From the NCBI RefSeq assembly GCF_016026235.1, contig NZ_CP065613.1: 64,000 bases of DNA. One strand, given 5' to 3'. This document shows positions 19,134-19,156 of this stretch, one piece after another. This DNA is from Escherichia coli (GTDB lineage: Bacteria > Pseudomonadota > Gammaproteobacteria > Enterobacterales > Enterobacteriaceae). The notes under the pieces are model-generated. The model worked only from the letters and a program-made list of their open reading frames with translations, searched no databases and was not told the origin of the DNA. Each line of letters begins with the position of its first letter. Position 1 is the first letter of the stretch. Both the position numbers and the translations under genes were made by a program.

Positions 19134-19156
19134 ATTAAGGATGTTGTAACTAAAGT
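19134..19156. promoter_or_regulatory. replication terminus site TerB (Tus binding site)
   Basis: ...GGATGTTGTAACTAAAGT contains the conserved Ter core GTTGTAAC and sits immediately upstream of tus, as TerB does in K-12. Confidence 0.75.

Follow-up and report, generated by a model that had tools for sequence, protein, structure and literature searches.

The window analyzed here, a 64,000-nucleotide stretch of Escherichia coli DNA (NCBI RefSeq assembly GCF_016026235.1, contig NZ_CP065613.1), harbored a 23-bp Ter site in the spacer between rstB and tus (Table 1), within the gene order ydgI-folM-ydgC-rstA-rstB-[Ter]-tus-fumC-fumA as displayed by comparison with K-12. The whole window was collinear with positions 1,665,093-1,727,866 of K-12 MG1655, at 98.4-98.9% identity. 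Its nearest relatives among complete genomes were FDAARGOS_943 (99.9%) and EC2641 (99.5%), with O157:H7-type strains next. The original prediction, made from the sequence alone, had placed a TerB site about 10 bp before the tus start; its coordinates proved exact, with a gap of 10 nt between the last Ter base (19156) and the tus ATG (19167). As it had also anticipated of gene callers, no feature was recorded at the site in either the RefSeq table of MG1655 or the table made by PGAP for the closest genome. The main value of the present analysis lies in annotation, since neither of the two annotations checked marks the TerB site.

Table 1. Features of the rstB-tus spacer, its flanking genes and the matS motif (window coordinates)
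Feature	Position	Strand	Remarks
rstB, upstream flank	17790..19091	+	Upstream limit of the spacer that holds the site, same layout as in K-12
Candidate -35 hexamer TGGTCA	19106..19111	+	Putative, weak; 17 nt upstream of TATAAA; mostly conserved in 8 strains
Candidate extended -10 of the tus promoter, TGcTATAAA	19126..19134	+	Putative; last base is Ter position 1
TerB, 23-bp Tus-binding replication terminator	19134..19156	+	ATTAAGGATGTTGTAACTAAAGT; 21/23 bases identical to K-12 TerB; core 16-mer unique
Ter polarity	position 1 = 19134, position 23 = 19156	+	Position 1, non-permissive end; position 23, permissive end
G6 of the GC(6) base pair	19139..19139	+	G at Ter position 6; kept in 8/8 aligned strains
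Invariant core GTTGTAAC	19143..19150	+	Ter positions 10-17
tus (309 aa plus stop)	19167..20096	+	TIGR02648, 546.7 bits; PDB 1ECR/2I06, E = 2e-206
matS consensus	40040..40052		GTGACAGTGTCAC, perfect pattern match to GTGACRNYGTCAC; predicted MatP site

The open reading frame starting at 19167 was identified by homology as encoding Tus, the DNA replication terminus site-binding protein, so that the gene of the cognate protein was present beside the Ter site in the same genome. Its score against the NCBIfam model TIGR02648 was about three times the cut-off (178.3 bits), and it matched the PDB entries 1ECR, 2EWJ, 2I05 and 2I06 across residues 1-309. The predicted protein differed from K-12 Tus by I23A, Q67H and D247N, all other residues being identical. 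An in-frame GTG at 19155 overlapped the last two Ter bases and would add four codons to tus (region 19155-19166, MVNI-MARYD...), but this start is very likely not used, because the ATG at 19167 gives the 309-residue protein that was crystallised.

Upstream of tus, the candidate extended -10 element (TGnTATAAA) abutted the Ter site and was unchanged in all eight aligned strains. No promoter was called by a sigma-70 consensus scan of positions 18950-19300, the TATAAA candidate being skipped because the scanner demanded a T at hexamer position 6. TerB is known to lie within or to overlap the tus promoter, and Tus to autoregulate its own gene through TerB (PMC8707476, PMC8347550); a TGnTATAAA motif ending at Ter position 1 fits this autoregulation. 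From this promoter geometry, bound Tus would be predicted to cover the transcription start region of tus. The spacer also contained a hairpin (GGTGGT-caagtc-ACCACC, 19106-19123) with a 6-bp stem, overlapping the candidate -35 hexamer of tus. It was not conserved, two SNPs in K-12 cutting the stem to 4 bp and the sequence of WP3-W18 being unrelated there, and it is probably not a terminator because it is not accompanied by a T-tract.

Comparison with K-12 TerB and allelic variation

K-12 TerB, read from NC_000913.3 (1,684,226-1,684,248, + strand), was AATAAGTATGTTGTAACTAAAGT. Only two bases of the window site departed from it, Ter position 2 being T instead of A and position 7 being G instead of T, while G6 and positions 8-23 were the same and identity continued from there well into tus. 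The suspicion that bases 5' of the core departed slightly from K-12 TerB was thus borne out by the MG1655 alignment. The core (positions 8-18/19, with GTTGTAAC at positions 10-17) was intact and a G stood at 19139 for the G-C pair of position 6; position 6 and the invariant core, on which the original prediction had been staked, were free of mismatches. The locus was likewise that of TerB, the end of rstB, the Ter site and the tus ATG following one another as in MG1655. The window site therefore resembled K-12 TerB in its rstB-tus spacer, its 10-nt distance to the tus ATG, its strand relative to tus and 21 of its 23 bases, and was unlike it in T2 and G7, to which two more SNPs upstream in the spacer were added. 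Synteny, the number of matching bases, the intact core with G6 and the fork-trap orientation described below together upheld its identification as TerB.

The site was nearly universal in the species. A 51-mer spanning positions 19120-19170 was found once per genome in 5,423 of 5,426 complete E. coli genomes by sensitive blastn, always with at least 90% identity; this count includes 612 genomes missed by megablast and recovered with blastn, all at 90% identity or above. The exact 51-mer occurred in 804 of the 5,426 genomes, including O157:H7 and O145, the TerB of which is identical to that of the window over this length.

Individual allele states were read in eight aligned strains. K-12 displayed A2/T7 and the window T2/G7, while Nissle, SMS-3-5, SC418 and strain 104 displayed A2/G7, sharing G7 with the window but keeping A at position 2; E597 and WP3-W18 carried a 1-nt insertion giving ATAAAGTATG.... 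Variation among the eight strains was restricted to Ter positions 1-7, where positions 2, 5 and 7 varied and G6 was constant, and the sequence from Ter position 8 through the 10-nt spacer to the tus ATG was unchanged in all of them. G7 was found more often than any other state in this small sample, so the T7 of K-12 looks lineage-specific; within the limits of eight strains, T7 may be a minority state among E. coli lineages and G7 widespread.

This pattern of terB variation across phylogroups has already been published by Goodall et al. (PMC8347550), who reported that terB SNPs fall mostly in outer bases making no contact with Tus, and that position 7, where Tus makes no base-specific contact, also varies across phylogroups. 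The T2/G7 allele is expected to be fully functional, because G7 is the state found in TerC and because the outer bases and position 7 have no base-specific contact with Tus. The window site is TerB in a common natural non-K-12 allele, with two tolerated changes, real but ordinary. Published work already covers TerB itself, its location in front of tus, the two roles of the site and how its bases vary across E. coli phylogroups, position 7 included, and the analysis brings no new biology.

It is unlikely, though conceivable, that T2/G7 is not neutral and could shift the set-point of Tus autoregulation or the kinetics of the lock relative to K-12 TerB. The two bases may matter because positions 1-7 would occupy the interval from the -10 hexamer to the start of transcription at the tus promoter, and because they also lie at the non-permissive edge of the Tus-Ter complex. 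If such an effect were real, the O157:H7-type allele could alter the cellular level of Tus and the occupancy of weaker Ter sites. Almost all biochemical work has been done with the K-12 allele of TerB.

Orientation and terminus location

Position 1 of the site, its non-permissive end, pointed to lower window coordinates. Forks reaching the non-permissive end of a Ter site pause at A4, A5 and G6, while A23 marks the permissive end (PMC4499146). Several indicators of replication direction agreed within the window. The GC skew of the + strand was -0.024, with negative values in 13 of 16 bins of 4 kb; KOPS motifs (GGGNAGGG) numbered zero on the + strand and three on the - strand, and Chi sites two and five, respectively. 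The window also contained a perfect match to the matS consensus (Table 1), the MatP-binding motif that serves as a marker of the Ter macrodomain. Together, skew, KOPS, Chi and matS indicated that dif lies towards lower coordinates and that replication of the region usually proceeds in the - direction, the fork encountering the site from its permissive face. The expectation that the window belonged to the chromosomal terminus region was in line with these signals and with the K-12 equivalent at 1.665-1.728 Mb.

The positions of dif and TerC were taken from EC2641, the collinear relative at 99.5% identity, in which 150 kb were read. In EC2641, TerB was located at 520,851-520,873 (-), TerC, identical to K-12 TerC, at 582,188-582,210 (-), and dif at 602,568-602,595. 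TerC and dif were thus 61.3 kb and 81.7 kb from TerB, respectively, both on what is its low-coordinate side in the window. Going outwards from dif, TerC came before TerB, and the two shared a strand, position 1 of each being the end nearer dif. This layout is the K-12 arrangement, as required for trapping clockwise forks. [quoted passage not shown] TerB places the window inside the Ter macrodomain, on the side of the counter-clockwise replichore and some 60-125 kb beyond dif.

FDAARGOS_943, although closer to the window (99.9%), was rejected as a stand-in for polarity because of an inversion of about 250 kb with one end within the span of the window.

Predicted roles of the site and other readings

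The site is almost certainly E. coli TerB, in its T2/G7 allele, predicted to act both as a polar barrier to replication forks and, probably, as the operator of tus. The functional part of this reading (Tus binding, the lock, fork arrest and repression) is carried over from the K-12 literature onto the sequence of the window, and the steps would be as follows. Tus, encoded immediately downstream, would bind the 23-bp TerB as a monomer. A fork moving in the + direction of the window would be a clockwise fork already beyond dif and TerC, and would reach the non-permissive end at position 1. DnaB would then unwind the duplex up to GC(6), C6 of the - strand, once freed, would dock in the Tus cytosine pocket, and the complex would lock and arrest the fork, C6 docking and the Tus-Ter lock having been described in K-12 (PMC8707476, PMC4499146). 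TerB would in this way back up TerC as a second barrier. Forks travelling in the - direction would replicate the region normally, reaching the permissive end and displacing Tus. At the promoter, TerB adjoins the candidate -10 element of tus and would cover its transcript start, so that bound Tus would repress tus transcription.

Published work suggests that TerB is called upon chiefly by forks that get past an unbound TerC, and so is rarely reached (PMC8707476); for this reason, its role in fork arrest may be minor in practice. A comparable arrangement is found in type I fork traps, as in Edwardsiella tarda and other Enterobacterales, where a Tus-vicinal site, 'Ter1', likewise sits just before the tus start codon and arrests incoming forks with its non-permissive face (PMC8707476). 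The type I site is, however, one of only two primary sites closely flanking dif, whereas in the type II trap of E. coli TerC stands between TerB and dif, which leaves TerB as a backup.

Another reading holds that the site is essentially only an autoregulatory operator of tus, T2/G7 or the place behind TerC making arrest negligible. The overlap of TerB with the tus promoter and the autoregulation of Tus through TerB (PMC8707476, PMC8347550) are what this reading would predict, and promoter constraints may explain the high conservation around terB (PMC8347550); the unchanged stretch between Ter position 8 and the tus ATG in the eight strains would also be expected of a promoter and 5'-UTR. An operator alone accounts less well for the retention of G6 in all eight alleles while positions 2, 5 and 7 vary, since G6 matters for arrest and hardly for binding to the duplex (PMC4499146). 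A G6 kept amid varying neighbors points to selection on the lock, beyond binding. The orientation of the site is moreover that of the fork trap, G7 is also the state of TerC, the most frequently used Ter site, and significant pausing at TerB has been observed in K-12 (Duggin and Bell, cited in PMC8707476). An operator without a meaningful barrier function is accordingly very improbable, and the dual reading, barrier and operator, is retained.

Far less credible still is that the site is a different Ter, for example a relocated TerC-like sequence, as its G at position 7 might suggest. This base is also found in TerC, TerG and TerI, the sequence of TerC being confirmed by an exact match in EC2641. 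In a comparison with ten Ter sites, TerB was nearest to the window site with 2 mismatches, against 3 for TerA, 4 for TerC and 5 for TerG. Positions 19-23 of the site (AAAGT) are those of both TerB and TerA. The high-affinity, lock-forming TerC and TerG share the AGGATGTTGTAACTAA core of the window site, G6 and G7 included, but have different outer bases (1-4 and 21-23) and occupy other loci, away from tus and without an operator role. The flanks of the window site, rstB and tus, are those of K-12 TerB, and EC2641 carries a separate, K-12-identical TerC 61 kb away. Synteny and this separate TerC already refute the idea of a different Ter.

The least probable reading, to the point of being negligible and already refuted by statistics, synteny and conservation, is a chance Ter-like sequence or a non-functional pseudo-Ter of the kind of TerK, TerL, TerY and TerZ: the 8-mer GTTGTAAC alone is indeed not significant (2 copies observed in the window versus 1.5 expected, the second copy not being a Ter), but the exact 16-nt core AGNATGTTGTAACTAA, which matched once without mismatch on the two strands of the window, would be expected by chance only about 1e-4 times in these 128 kb, the site holds the orthologous TerB position beside tus and is present in nearly all genomes of the species, and its core is free of the mismatches that pseudo-Ter sites carry (PMC8347550).

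Looser matching brought no further candidate above background. A search of the window allowing up to 3 mismatches to the core returned two extra matches (51545 and 54209), both at the limit of 3 mismatches, the total of three found against 1.28 expected being at chance level. The second copy of GTTGTAAC, at 36736-36743 (-), was rejected as a Ter, with core mismatches at positions 9, 18 and 19 and 11 of 23 bases mismatched overall; it sits inside a 651-aa open reading frame (35028-36983, malX by collinearity with K-12) and is a chance match. Outside the window, EC2641 contained a Ter-like 23-mer, CGTACAGATGTTGTAACCATTGT, at 545,263-545,285 (+) inside ynfE. Its position 6 is A in place of G, its positions 18-20 are mismatched, and it points the opposite way to TerB and TerC; it probably belongs to the pseudo-Ter sites already dismissed.

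Insertion sequence and other differences from K-12

An ISEc60 element (IS4-like), absent from K-12, was located at 31102-32393 between uidA and uidR. Its transposase was encoded at 31121-32362 (-), its terminal inverted repeats were about 18 nt long, and the target-site duplication flanking the copy, GGGGAATTCTCC, measured 12 bp. An intact junction of uidA, IS and uidR was encountered in only two of the 5,426 complete E. coli genomes (RMDEC364 and RMDEC332). Lying upstream of uidA, the element could affect beta-glucuronidase expression.

FDAARGOS_943 (NZ_CP065615.1) was not collinear with the window, the comparison region being about 25000-39000. Positions 1-25000 of the window corresponded to 1,330,033-1,355,033 (+) of NZ_CP065615.1 and positions 39001-64000 to 1,075,897-1,100,800 (-). 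The break fell at the ISEc60 copy, of which the IS-plus-uidR side was found at 1,106,704-1,108,715 (-), and ISEc60 occupied about 36 places in FDAARGOS_943. A break at this element points to an IS-mediated inversion of about 250 kb, TerB included.

Two smaller features set the window beside K-12. About 150 bp of K-12 sequence downstream of ydgA were missing (window 26279-26307 versus K-12 1,691,399-1,691,552), the missing segment being likely a REP/BIME-type intergenic element. Within rsxC, internal tandem repeats with a period of about 96 bp were displayed at 44600-45230 by staggered, self-similar BLAST matches against K-12, and the repeat copy number may differ from that of K-12.
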